Source: a virus
Lineage: Duplodnaviria > Caudoviricetes
Direction: 5' to 3' (one strand)
IMG/VR virus record: IMGVR_UViG_3300001598_000034
Location: 32,001 to 96,000 of that record
Length of the DNA: 64,000 nt
Made by a program: the position numbers and the translations under genes. The notes beneath the pieces were generated by a model. The model did no database searches and was not told the DNA's origin. It saw only the letters and a program-made list of their open reading frames with translations. Within the stretch, counting starts at the first letter, position 1, and each line of letters opens with the position of its first letter. Shown here piece by piece: positions 4,886-63,169 of the stretch.

Positions 4886-5100
4886 AAGTTTGCACTGTAT
4901 ACATGCATACCATTTGCATCCACGCCATCATCACTCCAAGAGGAAATGCGTGCGTTAGTGGGGAGGTTAGGAACTTGAGCACGAACTGCCTCAATGCAGT
5001 CTTCATCACTGAGAACTTCATCAGCAGTCATGAAGGGGAACTCAAAATCTCCATATCCAGCCACACGAATAATCTTCTTAATCATTTCATTTTGTTGCAT
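4855..5100 (-). CDS. Prokaryotic ubiquitin-like protein (PRTRC protein C / Prok_Ub-like)
   Basis: 81 aa; VPNLPTNA and C-terminal QTKG-C resemble the YPELTTA...GTKG pattern of PRTRC-C; first gene of the E2/JAB operon; AAGGAG RBS. Confidence 0.7.
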   Translation of the reverse strand: MQQNEMIKKIIRVAGYGDFEFPFMTADEVLSDEDCIEAVRAQVPNLPTNARISSWSDDGVDANGMHVYSANLSVRAQTKGC

Positions 5101-5159
5101 AGTAGTAATCTCCTTAAAATTTTAAATAGTTTTTGGTTGTACTTTAACTGCCAGCTTGC

Positions 5160-5260
5160 ATACTATTCGTGATTAATATAACTCGATAACGATCTCTTAA
5201 TCTCCGAATCTCACTTTCAGGCGTAATTATCGCCGATACTTTCACGACAGTTTCGTATAT
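5160..5260 (-). ncRNA. Putative structured RNA module in operon leader
   Basis: Minus-strand pairings acugucguga/ucacga-a-uagu and cgauaau/guuaucg, with G-U wobbles only on the minus strand. Confidence 0.4.
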
Positions 5261-5310
5261 ACTATATTTCGGCTCCACTCAAAATATAGTTCTATAGATG
5301 AACCATTATC

Positions 5311-5517
5311 TATAGATATAATATTCTTTGTAACCGCGATCATCTCCCGAGATGTACTGGACGGTTCCTGGCAATGATCATTCGAGGCGCTGCCGGTACC
5401 GGCGGGCGACACTCTTCATACGGGCGTATGCTCTAAGCATACGCCATGAAATAGAAAGAAAGAGAATTCCCTTTCATTTTTTAAATTAAAGGTCTTACAA
5501 AGAATATTATATCTATA
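5311..5517. ncRNA. Putative ncRNA module closed by perfect 23-bp inverted repeat (IR2), GC-rich multi-stem interior
   Basis: Arms 5311-5333 / 5495-5517; internal stems ggcgtatgct/agcatacgcc, gccg-gtac-cggc, gatcat/atgatc, catctc/gagatg. Confidence 0.6.
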
Positions 5518-5558
5518 TACAATGTATATATTTATTTACAATGGATATGCATAAATAT

Positions 5559-5685
5559 AATAACAAGTATAGGTAGTGCTTTTAGGAGGATTTTAAGTTA
5601 TTTATCGAAAGGAGGTGTTATTTTATATGCATCAAAGGAGGTGTGATGTTTTAAAAGAGACAAGCACCAACCTATACTTGTTATT
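5559..5685 (-). ncRNA. Putative ncRNA module closed by perfect 16-bp inverted repeat (IR3), carrying three anti-SD-like motifs
   Basis: Arms 5559-5574 / 5670-5685; plus-strand taggagga 5583-5590, aaaggaggtgt 5608-5618 and 5634-5644. Confidence 0.55.
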
Positions 5686-5691
5686 CGAGCT

Positions 5692-5993
5692 AATAGATAT
5701 TTAAATATGCTAACTAACAAAAATTTTGTGAAGTCTATTTGAACAAAAATCATAAAATGTCGGTAGCCTCTCTGTGGATTATTGGAATTCGTCTATGTGC
5801 AGGATCGGATAACGGTCAAGATACAAGTATAACAGGATCTTGCCGATTATCAGATCCTTGCATCTATGAGACGTTTCCAATACTCCACAGGAGGGCGTAC
5901 GAATTTTGTGATGTTTGTGCAAATTAAAAGTTGGAAGAGGAAGAACTCTTCCTCCATATGATAACTCTTAGTTAGCATATTTAAATATCTATT
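5692..5993. ncRNA. Putative ncRNA module closed by perfect 26-bp inverted repeat (IR4), enclosing a ~185-nt imperfect rod hairpin
   Basis: Arms 5692-5717 / 5968-5993; interior 5738-5924 self-complementary (ctgtgga/tccacag, tattggaa/ttccaata, ggatc/gatcc, caagat/atcttg). Confidence 0.6.
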
Positions 5994-6009
5994 GTAAAAA
6001 AGGAGGGAC

Positions 6010-6041
6010 TTCTATACCGAGCTTTTCAGCACGGTATAGAA
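6010..6041. repeat. Hairpin ttctataccg-N12-cggtatagaa
   Basis: 10-bp perfect stem just downstream of the minus-strand promoter at 6071-6107. Confidence 0.7.
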
Positions 6042-6070
6042 GGTAGGAAGAAAAAATCTAAAGCATCCTA

Positions 6071-6107
6071 CATAATACTTATACCATTTTTTACTCAATT
6101 TTTTCGA
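6071..6107 (-). promoter_or_regulatory. Class B phage promoter
   Basis: TCGAAAAAAT-N12-GGTATAAGTATTATG; same 37-nt layout as 6183-6219 and 50077-50113. Confidence 0.7.
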
Positions 6108-6182
6108 CTACAAAATTGGTATTAAATAGCATAAGTATTCAGCTCCCGTAAACCACTCATTGGAACATACTAAATATCTCCG

Positions 6183-6219
6183 CATAATACTTATACCATT
6201 TTATACTATATTTTTTTGA
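6183..6219 (-). promoter_or_regulatory. Class B phage promoter
   Basis: TCAAAAAAAT-N12-GGTATAAGTATTATG. Confidence 0.7.
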
Positions 6220-6229
6220 TCTAAAAAAC

Positions 6230-6240
6230 AGGTATAATAT
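6230..6240 (+). promoter_or_regulatory. Class A phage promoter (AGGTATAATAT)
   Basis: Exact 11-mer recurring in intergenic regions, co-oriented with downstream genes. Confidence 0.75.
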
Positions 6241-6275
6241 CAACTAGAAAATACTATATTAGGAAGGAGTCTTTT

Positions 6276-7031
6276 ATGACTACAGATAAAAACGATAAAG
6301 TATCTATTGGAGAAAAAGTTAAAACAAAGCATTCTATTCTAACTTATAATCCAGATACAAATTCTAATACCTTTCTAGACTATACCGAAAAGACCTTACA
6401 TACAAACTATGATAAGCTATATGAAATCAAAACAAAGAGAGGCTATAGCATAAAGGTAACAAATGACCATAGCTTAATAACTAATGGTTCTGAAGACTTT
6501 TTTGAAAAGGTGTCTCCAGATAAAGCTCTTGGTAAGTTTGTTCCAGTTCTGTATAGTTTAAAATGTGGATTTAAAAAGTACAAAACAGCAAAAGACTTAA
6601 TCAATGATAAGCATACAATAGAATTAACTGCAGAATTATTAAAGTATGATGATATGACTATATGCGCAATAATATCCTTATTGTCTGTACCAGATAAAGA
6701 TGATGAAAAGTTAATGCATATTAGATACTTTAATAAACTAGAAAAATACATTATTCTTTTACTACTTGCAAGGTTATCTTATTTTGTAGAGAAAATAACA
6801 GATGAAGAAATCTTAGCAACACTTTATAAAGGAAAACAAATACCAGAAAATAATAAACTAGTAGATGCAGAAGAAGTAGTTAACGACAATCCTGCTAATC
6901 CATACTTATCACTTCCTTACTCCTGGGATGAAATAATAGAAGTGAATGAAGTAGAGAGAGAAGAGATTACCTATGATTTCTCAGTGCCGCGATATCCATT
7001 ATTTATGGCGAATGGAATCATAGTATTTGAT
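6276..7031 (+). mobile_element. Intein fragment (putative IntC, 252 aa) lacking block A, ending VFD before +1 Thr
   Basis: Block B LYEIKTKRGYSIKVTNDH; block F/G TYDFSVPRYPLFMANGIIVFD/T. Confidence 0.8.
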
Positions 7032-8984
7032 ACAGTAATGGTTCATACACCTGTATCAGCAGAAGCCAGACAAGAAGCATTAGACAAGATGCTTCCTAGC
7101 AAAAACTTATTCCATCCACGCACAATGGCGCCTATACTAATGCCACGTCAGGAACATATCTTCGGTTTTTATCAAGCATCAAAAGATATTCCAGAGTTAA
7201 GAAAGAGCAATGTTAAAGCAGAATCCGTTATGGATTTGGATAAACTTCTTCAAGATATTAAAATGGGAAAAGTAAAACCAGATATGCCTGTAAGATATCA
7301 AGGGCAATTAACAACAGCAGGAATTGCAATAGCTATAGGTAATTTGCCACCGATGCTTAGAGACTACAATATGGTATGGGATAAAAAGAATATTACAAGA
7401 GTTATGGGAATGTTGGCAAAGCAAGAACCAACTAAATACCAATTTGTAGTAGATCTTTTTAAAGAGCTAGGTGGTTTATATGCTTATAAATTAGGATCAA
7501 CTTTCAAACTATCAGATTTTGATTTACAAAAGTTGAAAAAAATGCGCGATGCGTATTTCTCTAAAACAGACAAAGCTTTAGCAAAGATTGATAATAGCAA
7601 TTTATCTAAACAAGAGAAAGAACAGCGCATTGGTGAAGAACTACGTAAAGCACAAGCATTTGCCTCCAATTTAATGGAACAGCAAACAAATAATACTTTC
7701 AATAGACTTTATGTATCCGGAGCAAAAGGAAGTGGAGGACAGATAACACAGATTTTATCTAGTCCTACAGTAGTAGCAGACCCTAAAAACAGATTGATCC
7801 CTTCTCTTATTCACCATTCATATTTAGAAGGACTAAGCCCTGCAGACTATTTTACATCAAGTTACGGTACACGTAAAGGTAGTATTGCAGCTAAATTATT
7901 TGTAGCACCTGCAGGAGCTCTTTCCAAAGAAATAATGGGAAATACTCTAGAAGTAGTAGTATCATGTAAAGAATGTGGTACTGGTAGAGGGTTAAAGAGA
8001 GACATAGATGATAAAGAAAATGTTCTCTATAGACTAGAGGCAGGAACAAATAAATTCATAGATCCAAATTATTATGAACAGTTAAAAAGAAAAGGAATCA
8101 GAGAAGTAACCGTTCGTAGCCCTGCAACATGTGAAGCAAGAGAAGGTGTTTGCCAACATTGTTTCGGTTTTGATGAAAAGATGCAATTCCCAGAAATAGG
8201 CGAAAATGTCGGAGTAATGGCGTCCCAAGCAGTATCCGAAGTAATTTCTCAGAATACCATTTCTTCTAAGCATACAGCAGGAACTGCAGCAGAAGATAAC
8301 TATGGATTTAATGAAGTTAAAGCTTTCTATAATATGTCTTCTAAGTTCTCTGGAGCAGCTGTTATTTCTGAGGTATCTGGTAAAGTATCTAAGATTGAGC
8401 AGTCAGCAACTGGAGGTATGAATGTATTTATAGACAAAAAGAAATACTTCGTACCCCCTGGAAGAAGGGTTACAGTTGTCTTGGGTCAGGATATTAAAGC
8501 TGGAGATCCTATTTCAAATGGAATTATGCCATTTAGCAAAATAGTTCCTCACAAAGGTATAGAACAAGGTAGGCAACTCTTTATTGAAGCAGCTAACGAT
8601 ATTTATAATAAAGCTGGTGCACATACAATAAAGAAGAACCTAGAAACAATTTCTCGTGGACTTATTAACTATGTAGAGATAACAGACCCAGGAGATTTTG
8701 ATGAGTATGCAGAAGGAGATATTGTGGATTACAATAAGCTCATGGGAGATCTGCGTATGCACCCTGGTAAAAAGAAACCAGTATATCACCCAATCCAAAG
8801 TGGCACAAATAAATCCCCAACATTTAAAAACGACTGGTTAGATAACTTTGGCTTTAAGTTCTTAAAACAAAAACTTATTGACAACGCAGCAACGTTCTCT
8901 AAATCTCCGAAGAAACAATATAATCCAATCGCACCCTATGCACGCGGAGTTGGATTCGGAAAAGGTGAAAACGGAAAATACTAA
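6276..8984 (+). CDS. rpoC: DNA-directed RNA polymerase beta' subunit, C-terminal part, with N-terminal split-intein fragment
   Basis: TVMVHTPVSAEARQEA (=QMAVHVPLS after NADFDGD), SGAKGS, SYLEGL, bridge helix YGTRKG, Zn site CGT...RSPATC...CQHCFG, GENVGVMASQAVSE, trigger loop KHTAG. Confidence 0.92.
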   Translation: MTTDKNDKVSIGEKVKTKHSILTYNPDTNSNTFLDYTEKTLHTNYDKLYEIKTKRGYSIKVTNDHSLITNGSEDFFEKVSPDKALGKFVPVLYSLKCGFKKYKTAKDLINDKHTIELTAELLKYDDMTICAIISLLSVPDKDDEKLMHIRYFNKLEKYIILLLLARLSYFVEKITDEEILATLYKGKQIPENNKLVDAEEVVNDNPANPYLSLPYSWDEIIEVNEVEREEITYDFSVPRYPLFMANGIIVFDTVMVHTPVSAEARQEALDKMLPSKNLFHPRTMAPILMPRQEHIFGFYQASKDIPELRKSNVKAESVMDLDKLLQDIKMGKVKPDMPVRYQGQLTTAGIAIAIGNLPPMLRDYNMVWDKKNITRVMGMLAKQEPTKYQFVVDLFKELGGLYAYKLGSTFKLSDFDLQKLKKMRDAYFSKTDKALAKIDNSNLSKQEKEQRIGEELRKAQAFASNLMEQQTNNTFNRLYVSGAKGSGGQITQILSSPTVVADPKNRLIPSLIHHSYLEGLSPADYFTSSYGTRKGSIAAKLFVAPAGALSKEIMGNTLEVVVSCKECGTGRGLKRDIDDKENVLYRLEAGTNKFIDPNYYEQLKRKGIREVTVRSPATCEAREGVCQHCFGFDEKMQFPEIGENVGVMASQAVSEVISQNTISSKHTAGTAAEDNYGFNEVKAFYNMSSKFSGAAVISEVSGKVSKIEQSATGGMNVFIDKKKYFVPPGRRVTVVLGQDIKAGDPISNGIMPFSKIVPHKGIEQGRQLFIEAANDIYNKAGAHTIKKNLETISRGLINYVEITDPGDFDEYAEGDIVDYNKLMGDLRMHPGKKKPVYHPIQSGTNKSPTFKNDWLDNFGFKFLKQKLIDNAATFSKSPKKQYNPIAPYARGVGFGKGENGKY

Positions 8985-8992
8985 TATTAATC

Positions 8993-9021
8993 GAGAGCTT
9001 TTAATTAAGCTCTCTTTTTTT
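8993..9021 (+). terminator. Intrinsic terminator
   Basis: gagagctt-ttaatt-aagctctc followed by T-run, directly after the RNAP gene. Confidence 0.8.
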
Positions 9022-13886: not shown

Positions 13887-16844
13887 ATGTTAGGTAAAAG
13901 ATATTCTCTTGGAAGTGTATTTGAACCAACAGGCGAACCTCTTGTTAAAGTAGCTAACTTTAAAGAACTTGCACAACAAAGCGAAGATATTAAATCTTTT
14001 TTAGCTACCTTTAAACCAGATCCTGGATATATGTATTTGCACGTAATAGCTGTAGGAGCCGGAGAATACTGGGGTAAAAATATCAATAGCGATTATTTCT
14101 TGGAAGATGATTTACTTAATAGGTATAAAACTTTTGAGACAGACGCAAAGGTATTTCGTGAACATGATAATAAACCATATTCCCAGTCATATGGTTATGT
14201 ACCATTTGCTTGGTATAATATGCCAATGCATAGAGTAGAACTTATTTTAGCTATAGACAAGATCAAAGGTAAAGAGTTTGTAGATAGACAAAATGCTGGT
14301 GAGCAGTTATGCGTAAGCATGGGATGTTTCCCAGCAGGAACAGACGTACTACTTGCAGATAATACCTTTAAACATATTGAAGACATAAATCCCGGAGATA
14401 AAGTAATTACGCACACAGGGGAAGAGCATGAAGTAACAACTAAAATGCTTCATGAACATACCGGGAATATGTGCAGAATTAAGGCTAGTGGTCAAACGCA
14501 AGAGCTTATATGCACCGACAATCACCCAATCCTGGTAAGAAGATATACTGGATTATTAGAGGATAGTTATGGAGAATGCCCTGTATGTAATAAAAAGTTT
14601 AATCAGGTTTTAACGCATATAATACGGTCTACAAATAAAGAGCACATTGTTTATAGAAATAATATGTTAGATCATAAGTATTTGTATAAACAATATTGGA
14701 CAGATGCAAAAAATATATTACCAGGTGACTTTATATTAACGCCAATTACAAAAGCAACTTCAGACCATGTAAAAAATATAGACTTAGCAAAAATAATAGG
14801 ATATTTTTTGGCAGAGGGATCTTTTGTAAAAAATAAGAAAAAAGAATATAGAGCTATACAATTTAATTTTCATAAAAATGAGATAAATTTACATCAAGAT
14901 GTTCTTGGAGCACTAACTAATCTATCTCAAAAAATAGCTTCATATCAAATAAGAGAAGAAAAGCATTTAGGTGTTATATCTCTCTATGATGAGCATTTAG
15001 CAACTACTATTAAACGATTTTGTGGAGAATATAGTAAATATAAAGTATTAAACCCAGATGTATACACTTGGACATTAGAAGAAAAGCTATATATTATAGG
15101 TAAATACTTTGATGGAGATGGAACCTTTAATAAAAAGCATAAATCTCTATCAGCAACAACAATATCTAAAAATTTAGCGTATTCAATAGCCAGTTTAGCA
15201 AATACATGTGGAATTTCGACCCGTATTTCATCATATAATGGAAAACATAATATAGAATATACTATAGATATAGATAAAGAAGATACAAAAAAATTAAAGT
15301 GTTTTTGCTCTAAAATACCAGAAAACTATTCATATACTAGAAAATATAAAACAATTAAAAAATCATTTGTAGATGATGGTTTTTTGTGTAAAAGAGTTTA
15401 CTCCATAGAAACTTACTACGTGAATAACTTACCAGTGTATAATCTATCCGTAGAGGGAGACGAGTCATACACAGCAAACAGCATAGCAGTACATAATTGC
15501 AGAGTTAAATTCGACGTATGTTCCCTATGTGGTAACCATGCATCTAAACCACATGAATACTGCGAACATATAAAATACCATAAAGGAGAAATTTTTCCTG
15601 ATGGTAAGCAAGCCTATATGATTAATCCAAATCCTACGTTTTTTGATATTTCAATCGTTCGTAGGCCAGCATGGAAGCCAGCTTTCTGTTTAGCAAAAGT
15701 AGCTTCTACAGATACAGATGTAAATACTATGAGTATCCAGGAAAAGAATGCACTAGCATTTGAGGAACTGGATTCATTGATACCAATGGAAAAGACAGCT
15801 GAAGTCTGGGAAATACCAGAAGATGATGAGCTGTTAGGCGCCAAGGTATTAGCTAAACATTCGTCAGTTCAAAAGGTAGCTCTAGATAAACAAATGCCAG
15901 CTATTTCAGTCCAGGATATAGATGCTGAAATAAGAGATATGCTTCCAGCAATTAATAAACTGGAGCCAGATCTTCCAGCCCCTCTACTTGATGACTTAGC
16001 TAGAAAGTATGAGATAAAAGATATTCTGCATTCCTTTGCTTCAGCAGCTATACCAATGAAACCACAAGAGTTTACACGTATAGTAATTGTTAAGAACAAT
16101 CTTCCATTAGAAGCATTTGGAACAGTAATGACCGGAATATTAGGGTCATTCCATGGTAATGGTAAATCCGGATCTGGCAATACAGAAGTAGCAACGCCAA
16201 ACATCCTTCCAGGAATTTCACGACCAGAAATAATGGAAAAACTAGCACCATTTATCCATGCTCGTTCAGCAATCTTGAAAGATGTGTTATCAAGACTAAA
16301 TAGAATATTTGACACAAAAGAACTACAAAAGCTAGGTCTTAATAAAACAGCAGCGGTGTTATATCAACCAAATCCAGTACTGGATTCTTTAGATTTATCA
16401 CCACGTATGAACTTTGGCTATGTACGTAGAGTTCCAGAATTTCAAGATTCAAATAGAGGTCTTTCTAAAGATACTGTTTTAGTACAAGATCCAATGAATT
16501 TGTCTACTATGCCAGTAGCACTTTCCAGAGAATCATTGGTACAGGAAATTCGTAACCCGTCTATTAGCGACTATTCACGTAATCAACTTTTGGCATTAGG
16601 TGCATTACAAGGAAAAGATTTCTCTGCATTTAAAGATCCTAGAATTATAAATTCTGTAATACATGAACCAGGGTTCTTATCTTATTTAGCACTATTAATA
16701 AACTCTTTCAAAAGTAAAGGAACTAAAGCAGCTTCGCCTTTGGATACTAAGAGCATTCTAAGTAATGTTTCCTTAGAGCACTTAACAAATGCTTACAATC
16801 CTGTACCACGTATAATTTCACAAGAATATTATACAAGATACTAA
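13887..16844 (+). CDS. Prohead maturation protease (HK97/S78-like) with intein and C-terminal extension
   Basis: NxNxDYF, VFREH (His), VSMG (Ser), FFDISIV-x2-PA; located upstream of scaffold and capsid. Confidence 0.8.
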   Translation: MLGKRYSLGSVFEPTGEPLVKVANFKELAQQSEDIKSFLATFKPDPGYMYLHVIAVGAGEYWGKNINSDYFLEDDLLNRYKTFETDAKVFREHDNKPYSQSYGYVPFAWYNMPMHRVELILAIDKIKGKEFVDRQNAGEQLCVSMGCFPAGTDVLLADNTFKHIEDINPGDKVITHTGEEHEVTTKMLHEHTGNMCRIKASGQTQELICTDNHPILVRRYTGLLEDSYGECPVCNKKFNQVLTHIIRSTNKEHIVYRNNMLDHKYLYKQYWTDAKNILPGDFILTPITKATSDHVKNIDLAKIIGYFLAEGSFVKNKKKEYRAIQFNFHKNEINLHQDVLGALTNLSQKIASYQIREEKHLGVISLYDEHLATTIKRFCGEYSKYKVLNPDVYTWTLEEKLYIIGKYFDGDGTFNKKHKSLSATTISKNLAYSIASLANTCGISTRISSYNGKHNIEYTIDIDKEDTKKLKCFCSKIPENYSYTRKYKTIKKSFVDDGFLCKRVYSIETYYVNNLPVYNLSVEGDESYTANSIAVHNCRVKFDVCSLCGNHASKPHEYCEHIKYHKGEIFPDGKQAYMINPNPTFFDISIVRRPAWKPAFCLAKVASTDTDVNTMSIQEKNALAFEELDSLIPMEKTAEVWEIPEDDELLGAKVLAKHSSVQKVALDKQMPAISVQDIDAEIRDMLPAINKLEPDLPAPLLDDLARKYEIKDILHSFASAAIPMKPQEFTRIVIVKNNLPLEAFGTVMTGILGSFHGNGKSGSGNTEVATPNILPGISRPEIMEKLAPFIHARSAILKDVLSRLNRIFDTKELQKLGLNKTAAVLYQPNPVLDSLDLSPRMNFGYVRRVPEFQDSNRGLSKDTVLVQDPMNLSTMPVALSRESLVQEIRNPSISDYSRNQLLALGALQGKDFSAFKDPRIINSVIHEPGFLSYLALLINSFKSKGTKAASPLDTKSILSNVSLEHLTNAYNPVPRIISQEYYTRY
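14325..15497 (+). mobile_element. Intein (391 aa) with LAGLIDADG endonuclease
   Basis: CFPAGTDVLLAD (block A), CTDNHP (B), IIGYFLAEGS and IIGKYFDGDG (C/E), VYNLSVEGDESYTANSIAVHN/C (F/G). Confidence 0.95.
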
Positions 16845-26641: not shown

Positions 26642-27394
26642 ATGGGAACAGTTATAATAGATAAAAGAAAAAGTAAAAGTTATTCTGGAACTAAACCAGA
26701 ATATACACCTGGAATAAAAAAATCTCCAAGCAATTTAACACCTCGTATAGTAAGTTCATTGTTTATTTTAGCATTACAACATTATTTTATTTCTCATCCA
26801 GAATATAGATGGGATCCAGACGGTAATAAAACAGAAATAGATATTCATGCGGAGTGGGAAGAAGACGATAATTTGGAAAAAGGCCTTCCAATACTAATAG
26901 TACAAAATGGTCCGATATCAATATCACCCGCAGGAATAGGCACTGGATTAGCTTCCTTGGAACCTAGAATAATAAAAAGGGGAAAAGAAACAATGGAAAA
27001 ATCAGCTATATTAGACTCTCAATTACAAGCTACAATTGAGAGTAGTATTAATATAGCCGTAACAGGAATGAGTAGTGATGATGTTAGTGAATTAGCTTTT
27101 ACTATTGGCATGTTTTTATTAACATTAAAGTATGACATTGCATCAGTACTGCAACTACAAAGTATAGGAAATATACAAATATCACCAGCACAAGTATTAA
27201 GTAAAACAGGATGGACAAATAGATATATAGCTCAAATATCTATAGGCTATACTTTTACTTTAGCAAAAATATGGGAACCATTGGATGTTGGGACTCTAAT
27301 AAAAGAAATTATAACTGATGTATCTACAAAAACATCTCGTCCAACAACCCCAACAACCTATACACACAATACATTAAAGCAAGTACGCAATTAA
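26642..27394 (+). CDS. Putative tail terminator/completion protein
   Basis: LPILIV motif; immediately upstream of sheath. Confidence 0.5.
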   Translation: MGTVIIDKRKSKSYSGTKPEYTPGIKKSPSNLTPRIVSSLFILALQHYFISHPEYRWDPDGNKTEIDIHAEWEEDDNLEKGLPILIVQNGPISISPAGIGTGLASLEPRIIKRGKETMEKSAILDSQLQATIESSINIAVTGMSSDDVSELAFTIGMFLLTLKYDIASVLQLQSIGNIQISPAQVLSKTGWTNRYIAQISIGYTFTLAKIWEPLDVGTLIKEIITDVSTKTSRPTTPTTYTHNTLKQVRN

Positions 27395-27413
27395 TGCAAA
27401 AATTTTAAAATAT

Positions 27414-27424
27414 AGGTATAATAT
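27414..27424 (+). promoter_or_regulatory. Class A phage promoter
   Basis: AGGTATAATAT-atatTAGA. Confidence 0.75.
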
Positions 27425-27488
27425 ATATTAGAGAATAGACTTAACTAATACAGATAAACAAATTATTTTAAAGCGAGGTAATCTCAAT

Positions 27489-29864
27489 ATGAGTTTTAGA
27501 CTTCCGTCAGTCATTGTATATCAACAATTACTCTCAACAACCATTTCACCTTCAACACCATTTATGGACTTGTGTGTAGTTGGTCCTGTATATCAATGTC
27601 AGACAAACGCTTCTATGGATGACTACGAAATCCATACAATTGACGAATATATAAAAAACTTTCCTGAGTTAAAAACAGGCGCCGTTATTGACGCAAAAAG
27701 CGTATATCTAAAATTAGCTAACATTAATGTAAAAGTTTGGCCAACAAATACCGCTAAACGTAATAATGTAGTTTTAGATAACTCTGGTCCAACAAGTGTA
27801 ATCTATGATGTACAAGGAGCTGTTACTACAGAGTCTTTAGACACAGCAGCTATTATTGAAGGAGACCAAGTAGATATACGTTTTACAGATACAGACGGAA
27901 AAATAAAAGTTAAAACAGCTAAAATTTATTCCATTACACAGGATGAAGTATCTGGAAAAAAGACGTATATTTTACAGAAAAATTTATTAACAGGATTGTA
28001 CCCAACAACCGCTACAGTATCAGCAACAGTAAAGCGCTCTGTTAGTGGCACAAGAGATGTATATCCAGGAGCCACTGGAACGCTTGAACCAAAAGGATTT
28101 GATCTTATTTATAACATAGATGGATCAGTAAAAGCAATGCGTATTTCAGTAGGAAATTTAGAAGTTCCCGTTGACGAAGAAGCTACAAGCACCACAACGG
28201 TAGTAGATTGTAACGTTGCTGTAACATATCGTGCTTTGCGCACAGATGTTGCAAATGATTTCATTACAATTAACTCTTATTCCGAAGCTTTAGCTCAATT
28301 CGGAAACCCAAATATTGATAACCCAATGTCTGTAGCTGCACAAGTAATAAATAGTGCAGTTGGTGTAGTAAGATATAAAGTATTACCAATAGCAACAGAT
28401 GATTTTAATGGTTATAATCAAGCTTTGGACGTATTATCTAATTCAGATGCGGTATACGCTATTCAACCATTAAGCCATGATAAACAAGTTATTTCAGCTT
28501 ATGTAACACATTGTAAAGCAATGTCCGAAGCAGAAAAGAGCAAATGGCGTATTATTTATGGAAATATGCCTATGCCAGCAACAAAAATTGTAGTAGAACT
28601 TAATAACGGAACTCTTATGACAATGGGTTCTGACACGGAATTAACTTTAGATTATAGCTTTACTACAAATGATACTGCTACAGCTACAGATACCGGATGG
28701 GTAGATGCTGGTTCAAGCAGCTTCACCCGCGAAATAACACTCACAAATAAATTCTTGTCCTTGTATAATGGCACAGAAAGAGTGCCAAAAACAGGTGGTA
28801 CGATTTCATACAGTTATAACGAAGCTACTAAAGTACTAAGTATCATTGCTCCATCTAAATTTGCAGGAAAGGTATGCATGGATAATCCCAATTTTGATTA
28901 TGCAAACGCTACTTGTTATTTGAAAGATTTAGACACTAATGTTGGCGGATTTATATCTAATATAGCGCGCCCAACAGACTACGTAGACTTATATACAGTT
29001 GCATCAAATGGAGAAACTACCTATAAGTATTCTTTACAGATAGCAAAAGTATTAACTGATTCAGCATGCATTTGCTACACTCAAAAATGGTTAAAAAAGA
29101 CTGATGGCTATTATATGATTGATGGTGAGTATCAGCATTTTATTCCTGAATATAAAGATTCTGGTGCAGTAGAAGACTTGACAGCTTGCGCTTATGAAGT
29201 GGTACGAGTACTTGACACACAAGGAATGGCAGAAGCAATTGCAGGCGTAGCAGAATCCTTTAAGACTAAAAGATTTCGTTATGTTCAACCAGATCAGATT
29301 ATAATTACTGTAAACTCTGTAGATTATCTTGTTGGTGGAGAATATCTTTGTGTAGCTTTGGGAGCTATGCGTGCAGCATTACCTCCACATCAAGGATTTA
29401 GTACTATGGGAATTAGTGGTATTAACAGAATCACTCGTTCTAATAAGATGTTCACAGAAGACCAGCTAACATATATGGCATCCAAAGGCGTTTTCTGGGT
29501 AGCACAAGATGCAGTAGATGAATTACCATACGTATTATATCAAACTACAACCGATAATGGACAATTGGAAGTACAAGAAGATAGTATTGTAGCAGTTGCA
29601 GATTATGCATCTAAATTCTACAAAGAAAACCTTAAAAATGTATTAGGTCGTTATAATGTAAATACAATTTCTATGAACTATGTAAAGACAGTTATTAACG
29701 CATGTTCAAATGAAATGACAAGTACAAGTTACGAATACATTGGGCCGATGTTAACTAGTGCTAATTTACTCTCGTTAGTAGCAGATGGTGATAAGATAAA
29801 ACCAACAATTAAAATTGGTGTACCCTACCCTGTAAATGGTGTAGATATTACCTTGCAAGTATAA
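27489..29864 (+). CDS. Tail sheath protein
   Basis: N-terminal FRLPSVIVYQ, CVVGP; C-terminal PYPVNGVDITL; 791 aa. Confidence 0.85.
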   Translation: MSFRLPSVIVYQQLLSTTISPSTPFMDLCVVGPVYQCQTNASMDDYEIHTIDEYIKNFPELKTGAVIDAKSVYLKLANINVKVWPTNTAKRNNVVLDNSGPTSVIYDVQGAVTTESLDTAAIIEGDQVDIRFTDTDGKIKVKTAKIYSITQDEVSGKKTYILQKNLLTGLYPTTATVSATVKRSVSGTRDVYPGATGTLEPKGFDLIYNIDGSVKAMRISVGNLEVPVDEEATSTTTVVDCNVAVTYRALRTDVANDFITINSYSEALAQFGNPNIDNPMSVAAQVINSAVGVVRYKVLPIATDDFNGYNQALDVLSNSDAVYAIQPLSHDKQVISAYVTHCKAMSEAEKSKWRIIYGNMPMPATKIVVELNNGTLMTMGSDTELTLDYSFTTNDTATATDTGWVDAGSSSFTREITLTNKFLSLYNGTERVPKTGGTISYSYNEATKVLSIIAPSKFAGKVCMDNPNFDYANATCYLKDLDTNVGGFISNIARPTDYVDLYTVASNGETTYKYSLQIAKVLTDSACICYTQKWLKKTDGYYMIDGEYQHFIPEYKDSGAVEDLTACAYEVVRVLDTQGMAEAIAGVAESFKTKRFRYVQPDQIIITVNSVDYLVGGEYLCVALGAMRAALPPHQGFSTMGISGINRITRSNKMFTEDQLTYMASKGVFWVAQDAVDELPYVLYQTTTDNGQLEVQEDSIVAVADYASKFYKENLKNVLGRYNVNTISMNYVKTVINACSNEMTSTSYEYIGPMLTSANLLSLVADGDKIKPTIKIGVPYPVNGVDITLQV

Positions 29865-31445: not shown

Positions 31446-32375
31446 ATGTCAGAACCTATATCATTAGGGCAAACAAATATTCAAGCTAATGAGATAACGC
31501 TAAGAAAATCTACAATTAAATATGATAGTTTACCCGCATCAAATGCAAATAACAGCATTTCGTTACCAGAATCTTCTGATACTACAGGAGTGACAAAAAA
31601 TGGTAATAAACAAAACGCAGGACAAGTAGTATCTGGAATAGTAGAAAGCGCTAATTCATTAGTTGGAGCATATGGCAATCTAACAAGTACTGTAAAGAAT
31701 TTAACAGGATTATCCCTTCCAGATGTTAACTCCGTCCCAATCATAGGAAATGTTTTATCAGGACTAAATGCTATTACGGATATAGGCTCCACATTATCAT
31801 CAGGTCAATATGGAGCAAGAGTTCAGGCAGATAGCACGAATCCTCAACCAGGGGCATTTAAATGGGTCGAACGAGAAACAGAACCAGGAGACTTCATAAG
31901 CTATGACTCCGTACTTTTATTTGTAGGCGAACCAATTTATGCTGATAATCCAAAAGGTTCAGTTTTTACCCCTTTAGGATTATGTGAACAATTTACTATA
32001 GCAACATCCGTACAAGTAACAACACTTCAAGAGCTTAGATGTGAAGAACAAATAGTTTTACCAGGAAAAACGCAACCAGTTAATATTACTATTTCTAGAT
32101 TTTGTGGAAAATGGGCTAATTTATTAAATAGGCTACATGGAATAAAAGACGATTTAAGCTGGAATATGAGTAATCAGTATGATGGAATGAGAAAATTATT
32201 TGGTCTTTATTGTATAGTAATGGACACAAGCCGTAGAAATATAGTACATTCCTTTTATGTAGAAAGGTGTGCTATAGAACAAATATCATTTGGAATAACA
32301 GCTGGTCAAATACAAGTAATAGAATCTTGTGGAATAAAAGCAGGAAGAATAATAGACCCAAACTATCAAAAATAA
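31446..32375 (+). CDS. Putative tail tube initiator-like protein (paralog 3)
   Basis: PLGLCEQF...YVERC...AGQIQV, with Ser/Gly/Asn-rich N-terminus. Confidence 0.55.
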   Translation: MSEPISLGQTNIQANEITLRKSTIKYDSLPASNANNSISLPESSDTTGVTKNGNKQNAGQVVSGIVESANSLVGAYGNLTSTVKNLTGLSLPDVNSVPIIGNVLSGLNAITDIGSTLSSGQYGARVQADSTNPQPGAFKWVERETEPGDFISYDSVLLFVGEPIYADNPKGSVFTPLGLCEQFTIATSVQVTTLQELRCEEQIVLPGKTQPVNITISRFCGKWANLLNRLHGIKDDLSWNMSNQYDGMRKLFGLYCIVMDTSRRNIVHSFYVERCAIEQISFGITAGQIQVIESCGIKAGRIIDPNYQK

Positions 32376-59575: not shown

Positions 59576-60067
59576 TTATTCAGTTTTTAAATTTCCGTTA
59601 TCTCGCCAAATATTTAACGTTTTGGTGAGACGATCTACTTGATATAATTCTTGATTACTACTTCCATAATATGGGATCTTGCTGCTACGTAGAGATTCTA
59701 CATATGGACCTACTTTAACGAAGTCAATGTAGTTTGGGTAATCAGGAAATTCTTCCACAAATCTTTCTACGGTATACCCTGTGTAGAGTGTAACTGTAAG
59801 ATCTAGTTTATGTACTGCCACAGCTAACTCTTTGACTACATCTAGTTGTAGCATCGGTTCCCCACCAGAAAATGTAAATCCTGTAGTAAGAGCTGTGCGT
59901 TCTTTGAGTATATCCTCTATACTTACTAACTTACCCCCGTTGCAGTCATGAGTATGTGGGTTATGGCATCCAGGGCAATTTGCTTTACATCCCTGAAATA
60001 CCACAACTGTGTTTATACCTGGTCCGTCAGTAATAGAATCAAGTAGGATTTGATTTATTCTCGGCAT
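59576..60067 (-). CDS. nrdG: Anaerobic ribonucleotide reductase activating enzyme
   Basis: SITDGPG, FQGCKANCPGCHNP, FSGGEP, GSSNQ; GGAGGT RBS before ATG at 60067. Confidence 0.95.
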   Translation of the reverse strand: MPRINQILLDSITDGPGINTVVVFQGCKANCPGCHNPHTHDCNGGKLVSIEDILKERTALTTGFTFSGGEPMLQLDVVKELAVAVHKLDLTVTLYTGYTVERFVEEFPDYPNYIDFVKVGPYVESLRSSKIPYYGSSNQELYQVDRLTKTLNIWRDNGNLKTE

Positions 60068-61469
60068 TGTCACATACCTCCATAAGTTCGTCCACTCCGA
60101 TAGGTATGCCCATATGAGCTGTACGATCATGGAGTTCTGCTAATTTGCCATTGTTGAAGTTTTCAATTTTGCTGAAGTATCCTGTAATACGACGTACTCT
60201 GCGTAGGTCTTTGGATCCACACACGGGACATCCTTCTAATGGAATGATTCCTAAGAAATCACACTTATTGCAGAAGTCGATAGGAAAATTAAGGGCTATG
60301 TACCCTGCATCCTGATCACAAGCAAAATTCACTAATTTCTCTATTGATTCTATATTGCCAATAGGGGCTGATCCAAGTTCTACATAAAGAATATGACCAG
60401 CATTTGCAAACTTATGATAAGGAGCTTCCAAACGAATCTTTTCTTCAGCAGTTACTCGTGCAAACGGAGCCACATGACAACTGTTTACAAAGTAATCTCG
60501 ATCAGTAATGTTTGGAACTATACCAAACTTCTTACGAGTTGCTTTTAACAATGTATGACATGCACTCTCTGCAGGAGTAGCAATTACAGAGAAATTAAGA
60601 TGATACTTCTCTGTTAATTTATTTGTAAAGTTATACATGAATTCAGCGATCTTTAATCCTAATGCTTGTGATGCTGGATCTTCATGTTGTGCTTTACCTG
60701 TAAGACACATAAGAGTTTCATAAATTCCAATATATCCAATTGTATGAGTACCGTTCTTTAAGGATTCTTCAATACTTTCATCTTCAGGTCTATTTTCGGA
60801 ATTGAGCCAGAGACCTGTCATATTGAAGGGAATATCTTTGCGTCTTAATTGCTTTAAGACGTTATAACGATGAATTAATTGTTGCTCACACAATTCCATT
60901 GTTTCTTGTAAGAGCTTAAAGAACTCATCAACATTTCCTTTTGCCTCTAATGCTAAGTAAGGCAAGTTGATTGTCGTAAAGGATACGTTGCCACGTCCAT
61001 TAGCAACGCATGGTCCATTTACATTTGATGCAATGCGTGTTCTGCAACCCATGTAGGAAACTTCTTTTCCAAAAGGAGCATTAAAGGAACTATTCATATT
61101 AATGTATGTTGGGAACATACGCTTAGCCGTTACTCTTAATGCTAATTGGAATAAATCATAGTTTGGATCTTCTGGTCTACGATTAACACCAGTTTTAATT
61201 TTGAACAATATATTAGGAAACATCGGCTGTTCATGATGGCCTAGACCTGCATCATAAGCTTCAAGAATCGCTTTTGTCACCATACGTTCTTTAGGACTTG
61301 TGCCCATTCCTAATGTAATTGAGGAAAAAGGCACTTGATTACCAGCTCTTGCATGCAAAGTATTTAAGTTTCCAATAAAACCTTCACACGCTTGAAATAA
61401 TTCTTCGTAGGTAGTATCATCTGTAACATACTCTGCCATTTCCATATCAAAGTCTGATACACCTATACC
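60039..61469 (-). CDS. nrdD: Anaerobic ribonucleoside-triphosphate reductase, exon 2
   Basis: QVPFSSI, MGCRTR, GRGN, TPAES, CxxC-CxxC, RRITGY glycyl-radical motif. Confidence 0.95.
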   Translation of the reverse strand, partial: GIGVSDFDMEMAEYVTDDTTYEELFQACEGFIGNLNTLHARAGNQVPFSSITLGMGTSPKERMVTKAILEAYDAGLGHHEQPMFPNILFKIKTGVNRRPEDPNYDLFQLALRVTAKRMFPTYINMNSSFNAPFGKEVSYMGCRTRIASNVNGPCVANGRGNVSFTTINLPYLALEAKGNVDEFFKLLQETMELCEQQLIHRYNVLKQLRRKDIPFNMTGLWLNSENRPEDESIEESLKNGTHTIGYIGIYETLMCLTGKAQHEDPASQALGLKIAEFMYNFTNKLTEKYHLNFSVIATPAESACHTLLKATRKKFGIVPNITDRDYFVNSCHVAPFARVTAEEKIRLEAPYHKFANAGHILYVELGSAPIGNIESIEKLVNFACDQDAGYIALNFPIDFCNKCDFLGIIPLEGCPVCGSKDLRRVRRITGYFSKIENFNNGKLAELHDRTAHMGIPIGVDELMEVCDNAENKSNPT

Positions 61470-62464
61470 CGTTTAATCTTATACTTTCATATAAGCCTGA
61501 CTATATCTTCTCTCTTATCGGAGAGCTTCGCGCTTTGAATAAAAGAGTTTCACTTTTACTCTACTCTACTTAGTTACTTTCTGCTGGAGCAGATACCTGT
61601 TCGATAGTCGATGCACTTTTTAAACTAAGAGTGTGGTTAATTAAAAATAGATATTTAGGATTATTTAATTTATATAATACATCATGATAAGACTTATTCA
61701 ATTTCACAGCTAACTCCTTAATATTATTAGCTTCATAAATTATTTTTCCATTATATATAGCTTGAATAGTTGTTGATGTTTTAACAATTATAATATATCT
61801 CCAAATAACAATTTCTGGGTGTAATATTATTTTACGTATTGTACACTTTTTAAGTGGTAAAATACAGCTTGCAGTATGAATGTTTCTATACTCTATAATA
61901 CTTGACGTAGCTATATTTTTAACTATAACTGGTTTAGAACATGCAGGTATAGCGTCTGGTACGTTATGGTGATAATGTCTAATATTATCCCCATTTGTAA
62001 TTAATTCTAAATTATCTAAATTATTATTATGTTTATTTAGATCTTTATGGTTAACAACTAAACCATCATCAGGAGTATGATTTAAAAATGTATCAGCCAT
62101 TAGATTATGAATTTTCTTATAATTATGTTTTGTGTTTGTAGACAGTACAACTCTATAATAGCCATCTCTGTCTTGGCCATAGGCCATTTTACGCGGATTG
62201 CTATAATCTGTTTTACCGTGTGCTCCTTTCACAAACATACTATACAAATCCCCAGTTTTTGTGATAAAATAATGGGGAAAATTTTTTACAGGGTAAGCTT
62301 CTTCCCCATTTATTATGATCATTATTTATTTTCCTTTTCTTAGTTTAACTTAGCACAGGATAACCCTACGTATTACTTTAAGGGCTTCCCCTGTTAGCCT
62401 TCAGATTACTGAAGACACCTGGTATTTACCAGTTCACGAAGTTTTAATTCGGCAGTATTTATTT
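61470..62464 (-). mobile_element. Group I intron (995 nt) in nrdD
   Basis: 5' splice site after U of CAGTTCGGT pairing with intron GCCGAATT (P1, U-G); P7 GACTA / AAGATATAGTC; terminal G at 61470; splicing restores QFG-GIGVSDFD in frame. Confidence 0.92.
61570..62322 (-). CDS. Intron-encoded HNH homing endonuclease (NUMOD4-HNH)
   Basis: YFITKTGDLYS, DGYYRV, IHNLMA, VNHKDLNKHNNNLDNLE. Confidence 0.92.
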   Translation of the reverse strand: MIIINGEEAYPVKNFPHYFITKTGDLYSMFVKGAHGKTDYSNPRKMAYGQDRDGYYRVVLSTNTKHNYKKIHNLMADTFLNHTPDDGLVVNHKDLNKHNNNLDNLELITNGDNIRHYHHNVPDAIPACSKPVIVKNIATSSIIEYRNIHTASCILPLKKCTIRKIILHPEIVIWRYIIIVKTSTTIQAIYNGKIIYEANNIKELAVKLNKSYHDVLYKLNNPKYLFLINHTLSLKSASTIEQVSAPAESN

Positions 62465-63169
62465 ACCGAACTGGCTATTTGCTGCACTCTGGAGTGCAAT
62501 TGCTGCCAAAGCAAATGCCGTACCAATGTGACTTGGACGACGTAAGTACCCATGAGGCATCTTCATATTATTTAATACTTTGTGGACTTCAAAGTTCAAA
62601 CAATTATAGGTAATGCCATAGAAACCTAAATCATGGATATAAATTTTACCATCCTTATGCGCTTGCGCAATATCAGGCGGTAACAACTTTTCTAACGCAT
62701 ACATCTTATTTACTGACTCTGCTATTTGAGCCATCTTGCTTGCAGGACTTAGTAAAGTGTTTGCATTAGACTTGTCTGTCTCTTTGGTAATAGCTTCTAC
62801 CTGGTCCATAAGACTAAGCATTGCTTCTTTACCCTGTTTACGGTCATTTCTGTACTCAATGTAACTACGGGCTGCATCCTTATCAACATCCATCAAGGCA
62901 TCTTCAACCATATGATGAATAGACTCGTATGTGATCACCGTGTTACTCTTGCTGAAATTAGCAACTTTTTCAGTAACAATAGCTGTTACAGATTTGGCTA
63001 ATTCATCAGCTTTTTCTCTGTCATATCCACATGACAATAATGCTGCCCAAGCCGCACGTTCAATTTTCATTGCATTAAAACGTACTAACTTTCCAGCTTT
63101 GTTTAGGACTTTAATTTCATTCTGATTTCGTGCTGCCTGTGCAGTCCCCGAAACTTCATTTTGTACCAT
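62465..63169 (-). CDS. nrdD: Anaerobic ribonucleoside-triphosphate reductase, exon 1 (ATP cone)
   Basis: VLNKAG...FNAMKI ATP cone; AHKDGKIYIHDL, YNC. Confidence 0.95.

Follow-up and report, generated by a model that had tools for sequence, protein, structure and literature searches.

How does a phage make an RNA polymerase when the catalytic loop of its sole enzyme is encoded by two genes lying 85 kb apart? This question is raised by an uncultured gut-type phage with a genome of 147 kb (IMG/VR record IMGVR_UViG_3300001598_000034), of which positions 32,001 to 96,000, a stretch of 64,000 nucleotides, are referred to here as the window. The genome, which is 92% complete, contains a single match to the C-terminal part of the beta' subunit (beta'C) and a single match to beta, and the enzyme therefore depends on the pair of genes described below. 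The most likely answer is that the two polymerase proteins are joined by a naturally split self-splicing element of 27 plus 252 residues. Specifically, we consider it probable that an atypically split class 1 intein, without a catalytic cysteine, trans-splices the polymerase active site.

The C-terminal half is encoded by ORF 6276-8984 (902 amino acids [aa]), which is the only long frame at the locus (Table 1). Residues 8 to 250 of its product match the Pfam family Intein_splicing (PF14890; E = 2e-12) over profile positions 9 to 153 of 155, with only the first few positions, corresponding to block A, missing. A profile search of the genome with the HINT splicing domain gave 50.5 bits, above the cutoff of 35.8, and inteins were the only matches in a PDB profile search with IntC. 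Within IntC, a variable 19-aa leader is followed by the strand SILTYNP, block B (VTNDH, containing T62 and H65), an insert of ~110 aa (residues ~95 to 210), block F (ITYDFSVP, containing D234), and block G (ANGIIVFD, ending in D252 at nt 7031). The insert is tentatively interpreted as a degenerate endonuclease remnant. The polymerase sequence begins at T253 and continues as VMVHTPVS, and the RNA_pol_Rpb1_5 (E = 7e-16) and Rpb1_4 domains both lie downstream of the intein part. Over 707 columns, this C-extein is 29% identical to the C-terminal part of an unsplit 2,076-aa beta-beta' fusion (P0145), in an alignment that begins at D252/T253. Since intein-less relatives read DYDGD/TMMVHAPV (the slash marks the insertion point), the C-extein picks up at the residue following the catalytic DxDGD, a motif found neither in the ORF nor anywhere else in the window, where block A is lacking as well. 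The frame upstream of the ATG is closed at 17 codons (open frame, 919 aa), so block A cannot sit upstream in frame. The first-pass annotation was thus correct in placing the start of the ORF inside a HINT domain with blocks B, F, and G but no block A, in having beta' resume at TVMVHTPVS with the catalytic motif outside the ORF, and in reading the end of the intein as F-D instead of H-N.

Table 1. Features of the gene encoding IntC and beta'C, in window positions
Feature	Position	Strand	Basis
Putative promoter region: two copies of a 37-nt element (6071-6107 and 6183-6219), then GGTATAAT at ~6233-6240	6071-6240	+	Repeat search
Shine-Dalgarno sequence AGGAAGGAG	6261-6269	+	Direct reading; 6 nt before ATG 6276
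IntC, C-terminal fragment of split intein, 252 aa	6276-7031	+	Pfam PF14890; homolog alignment
C-extein, RNA polymerase beta' C-terminal part, 650 aa plus stop	7032-8984	+	Pfam RNA_pol_Rpb1_5 and Rpb1_4
Terminator-like hairpin and T-run, directly 3' of the stop codon	8993-9014	+	Intrinsic-terminator scan

The same annotation had credited the gene with its own promoter and ribosome-binding site. The ribosome-binding site is plainly there (AGGAAGGAG). Promoter function is only putative because a sigma-70 consensus scan was at chance level (23 sites found, 21.7 expected), but the region does contain a recurring element: the 37-nt copies belong to repeat family D2 (89% identity), and the motif ACTTATACC...TTTTTTGA...GGTATAA is present also at genome positions 82078 and 99666.

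Where, then, is the missing catalytic motif? It had been predicted that a separate gene would carry this motif followed by a short IntN of 10 to 25 aa starting with Cys or Ser, and that it could be found in the rest of the genome as an ORF with block A and a nearby stop. We found such a gene outside the window, on the minus strand at genome positions 127475-122863; it encodes a fused beta-beta'N protein and contains two introns. After intron removal, the product ends in GFAGDYDGD/SVSGDTVVVVKDNETGKIEVKEIRDVD-stop. The IntN, at 27 aa slightly longer than predicted, starts with a Ser that directly adjoins DYDGD, and its block A reads SVSGDT (SVSGDTVVVV). The IntN tail that the split-intein reading calls for is therefore present, and a TAA stop and a terminator hairpin close the gene after it. 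The conceptual spliced coding sequence of 4,122 nt is in frame and specifies 1,373 aa, and its alignment with intronless homologs of 1,370 to 1,372 aa is ungapped across the exon junctions. Intron 1 (genome positions 123543-123285) belongs to group I (Rfam RF00028, 80.5 bits, E = 7e-20). Intron 2 (genome positions 123193-122962) had no Rfam match at E values up to 10, including in a search with 301 nt; it has a P1-like pairing (GCCGGU/GCCGGC), a 3' end (AAAAUUG) resembling that of intron 1, and a fold z-score of -3.1. Homology and the P1-like pairing suggest that intron 2 would also be removed. The two intein parts are thus encoded by separate genes on opposite strands, each with its own translation signals, as defines a split intein.

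Such a layout could be an artefact, arising either from misassembly of a contiguous intein-bearing gene or because block A belongs to an exon of this gene that lies further upstream. In keeping with this explanation, the genome is represented by one metagenomic contig, and no long ORFs occupy the ~2 kb upstream of ORF 6276-8984. However, 26 independent clusters of homologs, drawn from different samples, start at an identical point, and the in-frame stop 17 codons upstream and the lack of DxDGD and block A in the window do not agree with an upstream exon. The partner gene is ended by a stop and a terminator, and a stop follows IntN in 28 relatives too. A search among longer proteins for a contiguous version of the split intein gave three weak matches only (the best with E = 2e-9 and 26% query coverage), and an exhaustive search of 1.84 billion representatives gave 19 matches, every strong one having IntC at its N terminus; neither contained a close contiguous form. 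In a relative whose C half is 59% identical, both halves are located on one 104-kb contig, ~80 kb apart and in opposite orientations, and the N half shares intron 2 and the IntN tail with that of the studied phage. A broken assembly, which the first-pass annotation had named as a possible flaw in its own reading, does not account for a split that recurs in independent assemblies and is found with both halves on a single contig of a relative. We regard an artefact of either kind as exceedingly improbable.

If the split intein is functional, the residues required for splicing should be conserved. Homologs of the C half (n = 26) are 43 to 60% identical to it, and all begin with IntC; a search for related loci in viral contigs with the whole protein as the query gave no confirmed relative, and Megablast of positions 5000-9000 against phage records gave no match. 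T62, D64, H65, D234, D252, and T253 are invariant in the alignment of the 27 sequences (ORF 6276-8984 plus the 26 homologs). On the other side of the split, the N-half relatives showing the motif (n = 28) end in DFDGD/S[VI].G[DEN][TS], with 24 to 32 residues before the stop, and Ser1 is present in every one. The family also has His residues upstream of block B, H42 in 27/27 and H45 in 26/27. The studied copy is an outlier, with Y45 at the latter position, N63 where 25 sequences have Asp, F251 as the penultimate intein residue where 26 of the 27 have Tyr, and D46 and L48 likewise off the consensus. These deviations might indicate a decaying element that undergoes N- or C-terminal cleavage only, or no reaction at all, in which case the polymerase would be impaired or the gene pair would be a relic. 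Yet the extein deviates to the same degree (V254 and T258), suggesting a divergent lineage and not decay. Furthermore, no residue with a direct part in the chemistry has been lost, the two ORFs are uninterrupted and have a start codon, Shine-Dalgarno sequence, and terminators, and these genes are the only polymerase gene set of the genome. We consider decay very unlikely.

Structure prediction is consistent with the assembly of the two fragments. The predicted complex of IntN and IntC scored 0.89, compared with 0.00 for the best of three controls, a pass that resemblance to solved split inteins may explain; solved complexes attained the mark for this score in 58 of 80 cases and mismatched pairs in 2 of 110, counts that are rough because a custom alignment was used. 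The runs agreed in at least 81% of contacts, with a partner pLDDT of at least 82. IntN is predicted to contact IntC at residues 18-22, 59-66, 229-235, and 243-252, corresponding to the strand after the split and blocks B, F, and G. Modeled alone, IntC had a pLDDT of 64 and poorly placed HINT strands, as expected of a fragment; this model does not in itself speak for the split-intein reading. A Foldseek search of this model against the PDB returned nothing below an E value of 1e-3, and its best rows were the endonuclease-bearing inteins 2cw7, 7qst, and 7qss.

Since the docking prediction shows association only, the intein halves could be nothing more than a HINT-mediated dimerization module, with the enzyme working while a reconstituted intein of ~280 aa stays in place. 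The noncanonical F-D terminus would be in keeping with this idea, as would a more distant clade whose polymerases work from separate beta-beta'N and beta'C chains that have no intein and are broken ~88 residues further on. Mere association, however, would not need Ser1 (28/28) or Thr+1, the block B Thr and His, the block F Asp, and the terminal Asp (27/27 each), and it does not explain why contiguous inteins with the same YD/T end occupy the same site. In addition, the break point presumably falls within the double-psi barrel, immediately behind the Asp triad that binds Mg, and the general structure of RNA polymerases makes it unlikely that a 280-aa insert at the break in the catalytic loop would be tolerated. 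Association without splicing is, in our judgment, improbable.

The contiguous inteins at this site bear directly on whether the trans-splicing intein could be active with an Asp at its end. They are 469 to 542 aa long, most with a LAGLIDADG domain, and are found in the beta-beta'N proteins of eight more distant relatives (P0094-96, P0116, P0120, P0126, P0152, and P0154), whose host gene is additionally split ~88 aa downstream. The insertion point, a first residue of Ser or Cys, a block F of the form D.TVP, and a VYD/T end with Thr+1 are common to them and the split family, and hhalign aligned the two groups colinearly from block F through block G into the extein (probability, 97.8%). They differ from the split family in being in one piece and in their N-terminal blocks, which have diverged strongly (with a BLASTP E value of just 6e-4). 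Because an uninterrupted intein in the catalytic loop has to be spliced out, the Asp-terminal inteins of this lineage are presumably active. The terminal Asp noted in the first-pass annotation is indeed present, but it is not the oddity it was taken for, as it is invariant in the split family (27/27) and, being shared with the contiguous inteins, is normal for the lineage. In the intein-less phage polymerases, the residue after DxDGD is T, A, or S. Removing the intein restores the host sequence: DYDGD joined to TVMVHTPV matches both these relatives and the unsplit fusion P0145.

The composite intein has blocks A, B, F, and G, Ser1, T253 as the +1 residue, and T62 and H65 in block B, all as in class 1. 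In place of the C-terminal His-Asn of that class, it has F-D (Y-D in 26/27). Asp or Gln is accepted at the end of an intein and is known to permit cleavage by cyclization (PMC4031507), so the F-D end is a variant terminus that does not exclude the intein from class 1. Changes at the terminal or penultimate residue can slow the third splicing step in studied inteins (PMC4031507). A boundary shifted by one residue (DFDG/D...VY/D) was rejected, as neither junction would have a nucleophile.

From the gene anatomy, the partner gene, the conservation, and the predicted docking, we infer both a splicing chemistry and a need for splicing in polymerase activity. The mRNA for the N-terminal precursor would first lose two introns within 36 codons of the active site, yielding a 1,373-aa protein of beta plus beta'-N that would end at the Mg-binding loop DYDGD and IntN. 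The C-terminal precursor would consist of the 252-aa IntC and the rest of beta'. IntN would provide the first two strands, inserted into the incomplete HINT fold of IntC. An oxyester would form at Ser1 and be attacked by Thr+1, Asp252 would cyclize instead of the usual Asn, and the remaining ester would shift to a peptide bond. The product would be a continuous beta-beta' chain of ~1,996 aa joined as DYDGD-TVMVH, with the junction peptide GFAGDYDGD-TVMVHTPVSAEAR. As the halves are in different transcription units, assembly of the polymerase could be timed, a suggestion that is speculative. The transcriptional switch proposed in the first-pass annotation is a putative role. A broader proposal is possible but doubtful: that the three self-splicing events within ~45 codons (two RNA introns and protein trans-splicing across transcription units) constitute a phage timing or checkpoint device, and that the YD-terminated Ser1/Thr+1 family is a distinct lineage that uses Asp cyclization, works at gut temperature with a peptide-sized IntN, and is usable for cysteine-free semisynthesis.

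If trans-splicing occurs, the catalytic center of this multisubunit-type RNA polymerase would not exist until its two protein parts had been ligated. This arrangement would have been kept across a diverse clade of gut-associated phages, which raises the question of why selection would maintain a break in the active site of an essential enzyme. The case would also illustrate the conversion of a mobile intein into a permanent point of gene fission, and the natural series of contiguous endonuclease-bearing, split, and intein-less forms could be used to study the origin of split inteins. Multisubunit polymerases of the beta/beta' type that are encoded in pieces occur in phiKZ- and AR9-like jumbo phages, in which the pieces stay separate subunits. 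The AR9 polymerase genes are reportedly interrupted by self-splicing introns (Lavysh et al. 2016), and we know of no intein described in polymerases of this kind. Unlike in those phages, beta is fused here to beta'-N, and an intein spans the break, which coincides exactly with the catalytic loop. The literature searched contained nothing relevant on a split intein in an RNA polymerase, and a paper on RNAP-encoding Caudovirales mentions neither inteins nor introns.

Among known inteins, the closest in layout are AceL-TerL and GOS-TerL, two natural inteins with an atypical split that come from the large terminase subunits of phages and have IntN fragments of 25 and 37 aa (PMC11766414). The IntN described here (27 aa; 24 to 32 aa in relatives) and its near-complete IntC lie within the range of atypically split inteins (IntN of ~15 to 37 aa). 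Compared by layout rather than by sequence, all are class 1 inteins of phage or metagenomic origin, split near the N terminus so that a short peptide completes a nearly whole IntC. They differ in the host protein (terminase versus the RNA polymerase beta' catalytic loop), in the junction residues (Ser1/Thr+1 here, Cys1/Cys+1 in AceL, and Ser1/Cys+1 in GOS), in the terminus (Asp here, Asn in the TerL inteins), and in the length of IntC (252 aa with its insert, compared with 104 to 115 aa). The PolB16 OarG split intein from a sheep gut metagenome, which is cysteine independent and has a 15-aa IntN (Pasch et al. 2023, PMC10189870), shares the atypical split, a Ser1 oxyester chemistry without catalytic cysteines (predicted for the phage intein), and the gut metagenome source; its host is a DNA polymerase B, and its IntN is shorter. 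The family His residues H45 and H42 are in the place of the NX motif described for Ser1 inteins (PMC10189870), a match by position only, and the studied phage has Tyr (Y45) at the candidate position of the NX-motif His. The block B His is invariant in the split polymerase family, whereas it is dispensable in PolB16. Inteins that do not end in Asn were reviewed by Mills, Johnson, and Perler in 2014, and the studied examples named there (Pab and Mma Pol II and CIV RNR) are contiguous and end in Gln (PMC4031507). The family described here resembles them in lacking the penultimate His and in having an end expected to cleave by cyclization, and differs in that Asp is fixed across an entire split-intein family. 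Cysteine-independent atypically split inteins are especially sought for protein engineering (PMC10189870). Natural inteins with an atypical split and a peptide-length IntN, cysteine independent or not, are few (AceL-TerL, GOS-TerL, and PolB16 OarG), and the polymerase family would enlarge this set by dozens of naturally occurring variants that pair Ser1 with Thr+1 and end, unusually, in Asp.

Analysis of a 902-residue ORF pointed to an atypically split class 1 intein that probably joins two halves of a phage RNA polymerase by trans-splicing at the active site. Pfam placed an intein splicing domain at residues 8 to 250 (E = 2e-12) and Rpb1 domains 4 and 5 downstream of it, in agreement with the intein-beta' gene described in the first-pass annotation. 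The match covers positions 9 to 153 of the 155-position profile, so only the first few positions, corresponding to block A, are absent, as had been reported. Upstream of the ATG, the open frame ends after 17 codons. A strong Shine-Dalgarno sequence, the RBS recognized earlier, precedes the start codon, and a terminator lies 3' of the stop codon. The C-terminal intein fragment (IntC) ends ...ITYDFSVPRYPLFMANGIIVFD, with a typical block F/G pattern save for the F-D, already read as such, where H-N is expected. The TVMVHTPVS that follows, correctly identified as the junction, corresponds to the strand behind the catalytic DxDGD loop in intein-free relatives, which read DYDGD/TMMVHAPV (slashes mark the junction). 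A motif search found DxDGD neither in the ORF, from which it had been said to be missing, nor in the whole 64-kb window.

Coordinates of the split polymerase genes and of other features in the window and the contig
Feature	Position	Strand	Details
Promoter-like motif, ATAATACTTATACC-N-TTTTTTGA-N-GGTATAAT	window 6071-6240 (two tandem copies); genome 82078, 99666	+	
Promoter-like motif, weaker copies	genome 118231, 122458		
IntC-beta'C ORF (precursor C)	window 6276-8984	+	902 aa
IntC part	window 6276-7031	+	ends at D252
Exon 1, precursor N gene	contig, from 127475	-	1310-codon frame, ends after ...INRAPSL
Intron 1 (group I)	contig 123543-123285	-	259 nt; Rfam RF00028, 80.5 bits, E 7e-20
Middle exon, precursor N gene	between introns 1 and 2	-	91 nt, WKLNHQAFLPIPVKGKSIMTNPLTLTGFAG
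Intervening sequence 2	contig 123193-122962	-	232 nt
HDV-like ribozyme match	contig 122199-122265 (L003 34-100), outside window	-	RF02682, 41 bits, E 3.7e-5
Eight clustered tRNA genes	contig 27047-28078, outside window	-	Leu-tag, Ile-tat, Gly, Thr, Pro, Lys, Gln, Trp
985-aa ORF	window 13887-16844	+	intein at ~aa 142-537
nrdD region (two nrdD ORFs and activase)	window 59576-63169	-	
nrdD first ORF	window 62459-63169	-	ATP-cone + NRDD profile positions 2-104
HNH endonuclease ORF between nrdD parts	window 61570-62322		
nrdD second ORF	window 60039-61445	-	NRDD profile positions 115-562
Activase (radical SAM), next after nrdD	window 59576-60130		

The first-pass annotation had also predicted a separate gene carrying the catalytic motif and a short, Cys- or Ser-started N-terminal intein fragment (IntN). 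The window covers bases 32001 to 96000 of a single viral contig (146,590 bp, 35% G+C), and translating that entire contig in six frames revealed the gene: it encodes ...KLDYDGD/SVSGDTVVVVKDNETGKIEVKEIRDVD and then a stop, on the minus strand near position 122,961. Exon 1 encodes the beta subunit fused to N-terminal beta' (Pfam Rpb2_6, E = 9e-60; Rpb1_2). Recoding of the in-frame TAG that follows exon 1 was rejected, since the tRNA cluster contains no suppressor. The second intervening sequence has no Rfam match; it shows a P1-like pairing (exon end GCCGGU with GCCGGC), ends ...AAAAUUG, similar to the ...AAAAUG of intron 1, and has a better fold than its shuffled versions (z = -3.1). The last exon opens with DYDGD. 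The three exons joined give 4122 nt, in frame, and a 1373-residue protein whose last 160 residues align gap-free at both exon junctions with intronless homologs (1370 to 1372 aa). This product, precursor N, consists of 1346 extein (host-protein) residues and a 27-residue, Ser-started IntN. Its stop codon lies inside a hairpin followed by a T-run. Approximately 600 nt 3' of the stop, the sequence matches the F. prausnitzii HDV-like ribozyme with a score just below the gathering value of 44. The two precursor genes lie 85 kb apart on opposite strands, and no second beta'-C or beta gene was found in the genome, which is about 92% complete by CheckV estimate.

A search of 5.8 billion proteins yielded 26 clusters with the same IntC plus beta'C architecture and length (865 to 905 aa; 43 to 60% identity), from independent assemblies that include human gut metagenomes. 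When these were aligned with the present copy, T62, D64 and H65 of block B, D234 of block F, the terminal D252 and the first C-extein residue, T253 (Thr+1), were invariant (27/27). The residue before the terminal Asp is Tyr in 26 members and Phe in the present phage only, and the leader ahead of the first conserved strand is between 1 and 20 residues long. All 28 relatives of the N half that show the motif have Ser at intein position 1 and end NADFDGD/S[VI].G[DEN][TS]..., with 24 to 32 more residues, ...IKDV and a stop; four more stop short of the motif, at the intron 2 position. The closest relative has both halves on its contig, approximately 80 kb apart on opposite strands, with an intron at the intron 2 position and an IntN tail. 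A broken assembly, one of the objections foreseen in the first-pass annotation, is thereby excluded, and an artefactual origin is scarcely credible; a partner lacking an IntN tail, another of those objections, is contradicted by precursor N itself. The conservation also shows purifying selection on precisely those residues that splicing chemistry requires.

The intein is split after its second strand, like AceL-TerL and GOS-TerL, whose IntN fragments are 25 and 37 aa long (PMC11766414). Complex prediction with a 32-residue tail (DYDGD plus IntN) and IntC residues 1 to 270 scored 0.89, the best of three controls scoring 0.00. Of 80 solved complexes, 58 attained this mark, as did 2 of 110 mismatched pairs; these counts are approximate because our own alignment was used. 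Runs shared at least 81% of contacts, with a partner pLDDT of at least 82, and IntN contacted IntC residues 18-22, 59-66, 229-235 and 243-252, stretches that make up blocks B, F and G together with the adjoining strand. The prediction supports IntN/IntC complementation, with the reservation that a high score may simply mirror likeness to solved split inteins. Association of the halves without splicing, a reading that shares these predicted contacts, is unlikely; the selection noted above falls on splicing residues. For trans-splicing, the class 1 pathway via oxyesters would be expected because Ser1, Thr+1, the block B TxxH and the block F Asp are present, and the third step would be Asp cyclization at the IntC terminus. 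This route is accepted for inteins that end in Asp or Gln, at times with slow cleavage (PMC4031507). An additional His, known as the NX motif, is conserved in Ser1 inteins (PMC10189870); in the corresponding region of the present family, H42 occurs in 27 of 27 members and H45 in 26. The present phage has Tyr at 45, one of several departures from the family consensus, so its copy may splice more slowly than its relatives. That such departures reflect a decaying element seems distinctly improbable; this copy retains all residues with a direct part in the chemistry.

More distant members of the polymerase family, at ~40% identity, lack an intein and terminate approximately 88 residues past DYDGD, so their beta'/beta' break lies at another place. 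One protein, P0145, is an unsplit beta-beta' fusion (2076 aa) whose alignment to the C-extein begins exactly at D252/T253. At exactly this site, eight members carry contiguous inteins of 469 to 542 aa, most with a LAGLIDADG domain, that start with Ser or Cys, have ...TAWDLTVP in block F and end ...VYD/T. In a profile-profile comparison (probability 97.8%), they run colinear with IntC across blocks F and G and on into the extein; their N-terminal parts are only weakly similar to the split intein. Given their VYD/T ending, the Asp terminus is evidently a lineage trait, and these contiguous inteins must splice for the host enzyme to work. Protein database searches turned up no contiguous intein closely related to the present one. 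Its IntC has an insert of approximately 110 aa where other inteins carry endonucleases. The insert is confidently folded in a model of IntC alone, and the best structural neighbours of that model, though weak matches, are endonuclease-bearing inteins; it is plausibly, if tentatively, a degenerate endonuclease remnant. Many N-half relatives (P0045-P0058, P0066, P0071, P0073; 1690 to 2130 aa) have an extra contiguous intein elsewhere in beta/beta'-N, often with LAGLIDADG, so these phage polymerase genes are hot spots for several mobile elements.

Ahead of the IntC-beta'C gene, a 37-nt element occurs twice, followed by GGTATAAT; it is also found elsewhere in the genome. The TTGA to TATAAT spacing of the promoter-like motif is below that of a standard sigma-70 promoter. 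The beta-beta'N gene lies directly behind another ORF, where the element is absent. The two polymerase halves belong to different transcription units, an arrangement that might, speculatively, allow temporal control.

Elsewhere in the window, an intein that is complete, contiguous and equipped with a LAGLIDADG endonuclease lies in the 985-aa ORF, which is not assigned to a family (matches to Hint, Hom_end_hint, LAGLIDADG_3 and Intein_splicing). Among the orthologs of this ORF, the intein is absent in one (599 aa) and present in others, some of which have the endonuclease and some not. The nrdD gene, for anaerobic ribonucleotide reductase, is divided between two ORFs. Rfam detected no intron between them at E up to 0.01, and the break reflects either an intron that escapes Rfam and harbours a homing endonuclease gene, or division of the gene by a free-standing endonuclease.

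In the literature searched, no RNA polymerase was described as carrying a split intein. The phage intein shows every class 1 feature that could be checked except the His-Asn end, and it would work in the same way as known atypically split inteins. It differs from them in its host protein and site (RNA polymerase beta'), its fixed Asp terminus, its large, insert-bearing IntC, and its setting, with the split intein and both RNA introns of the partner gene located within approximately 45 codons of the polymerase active site.
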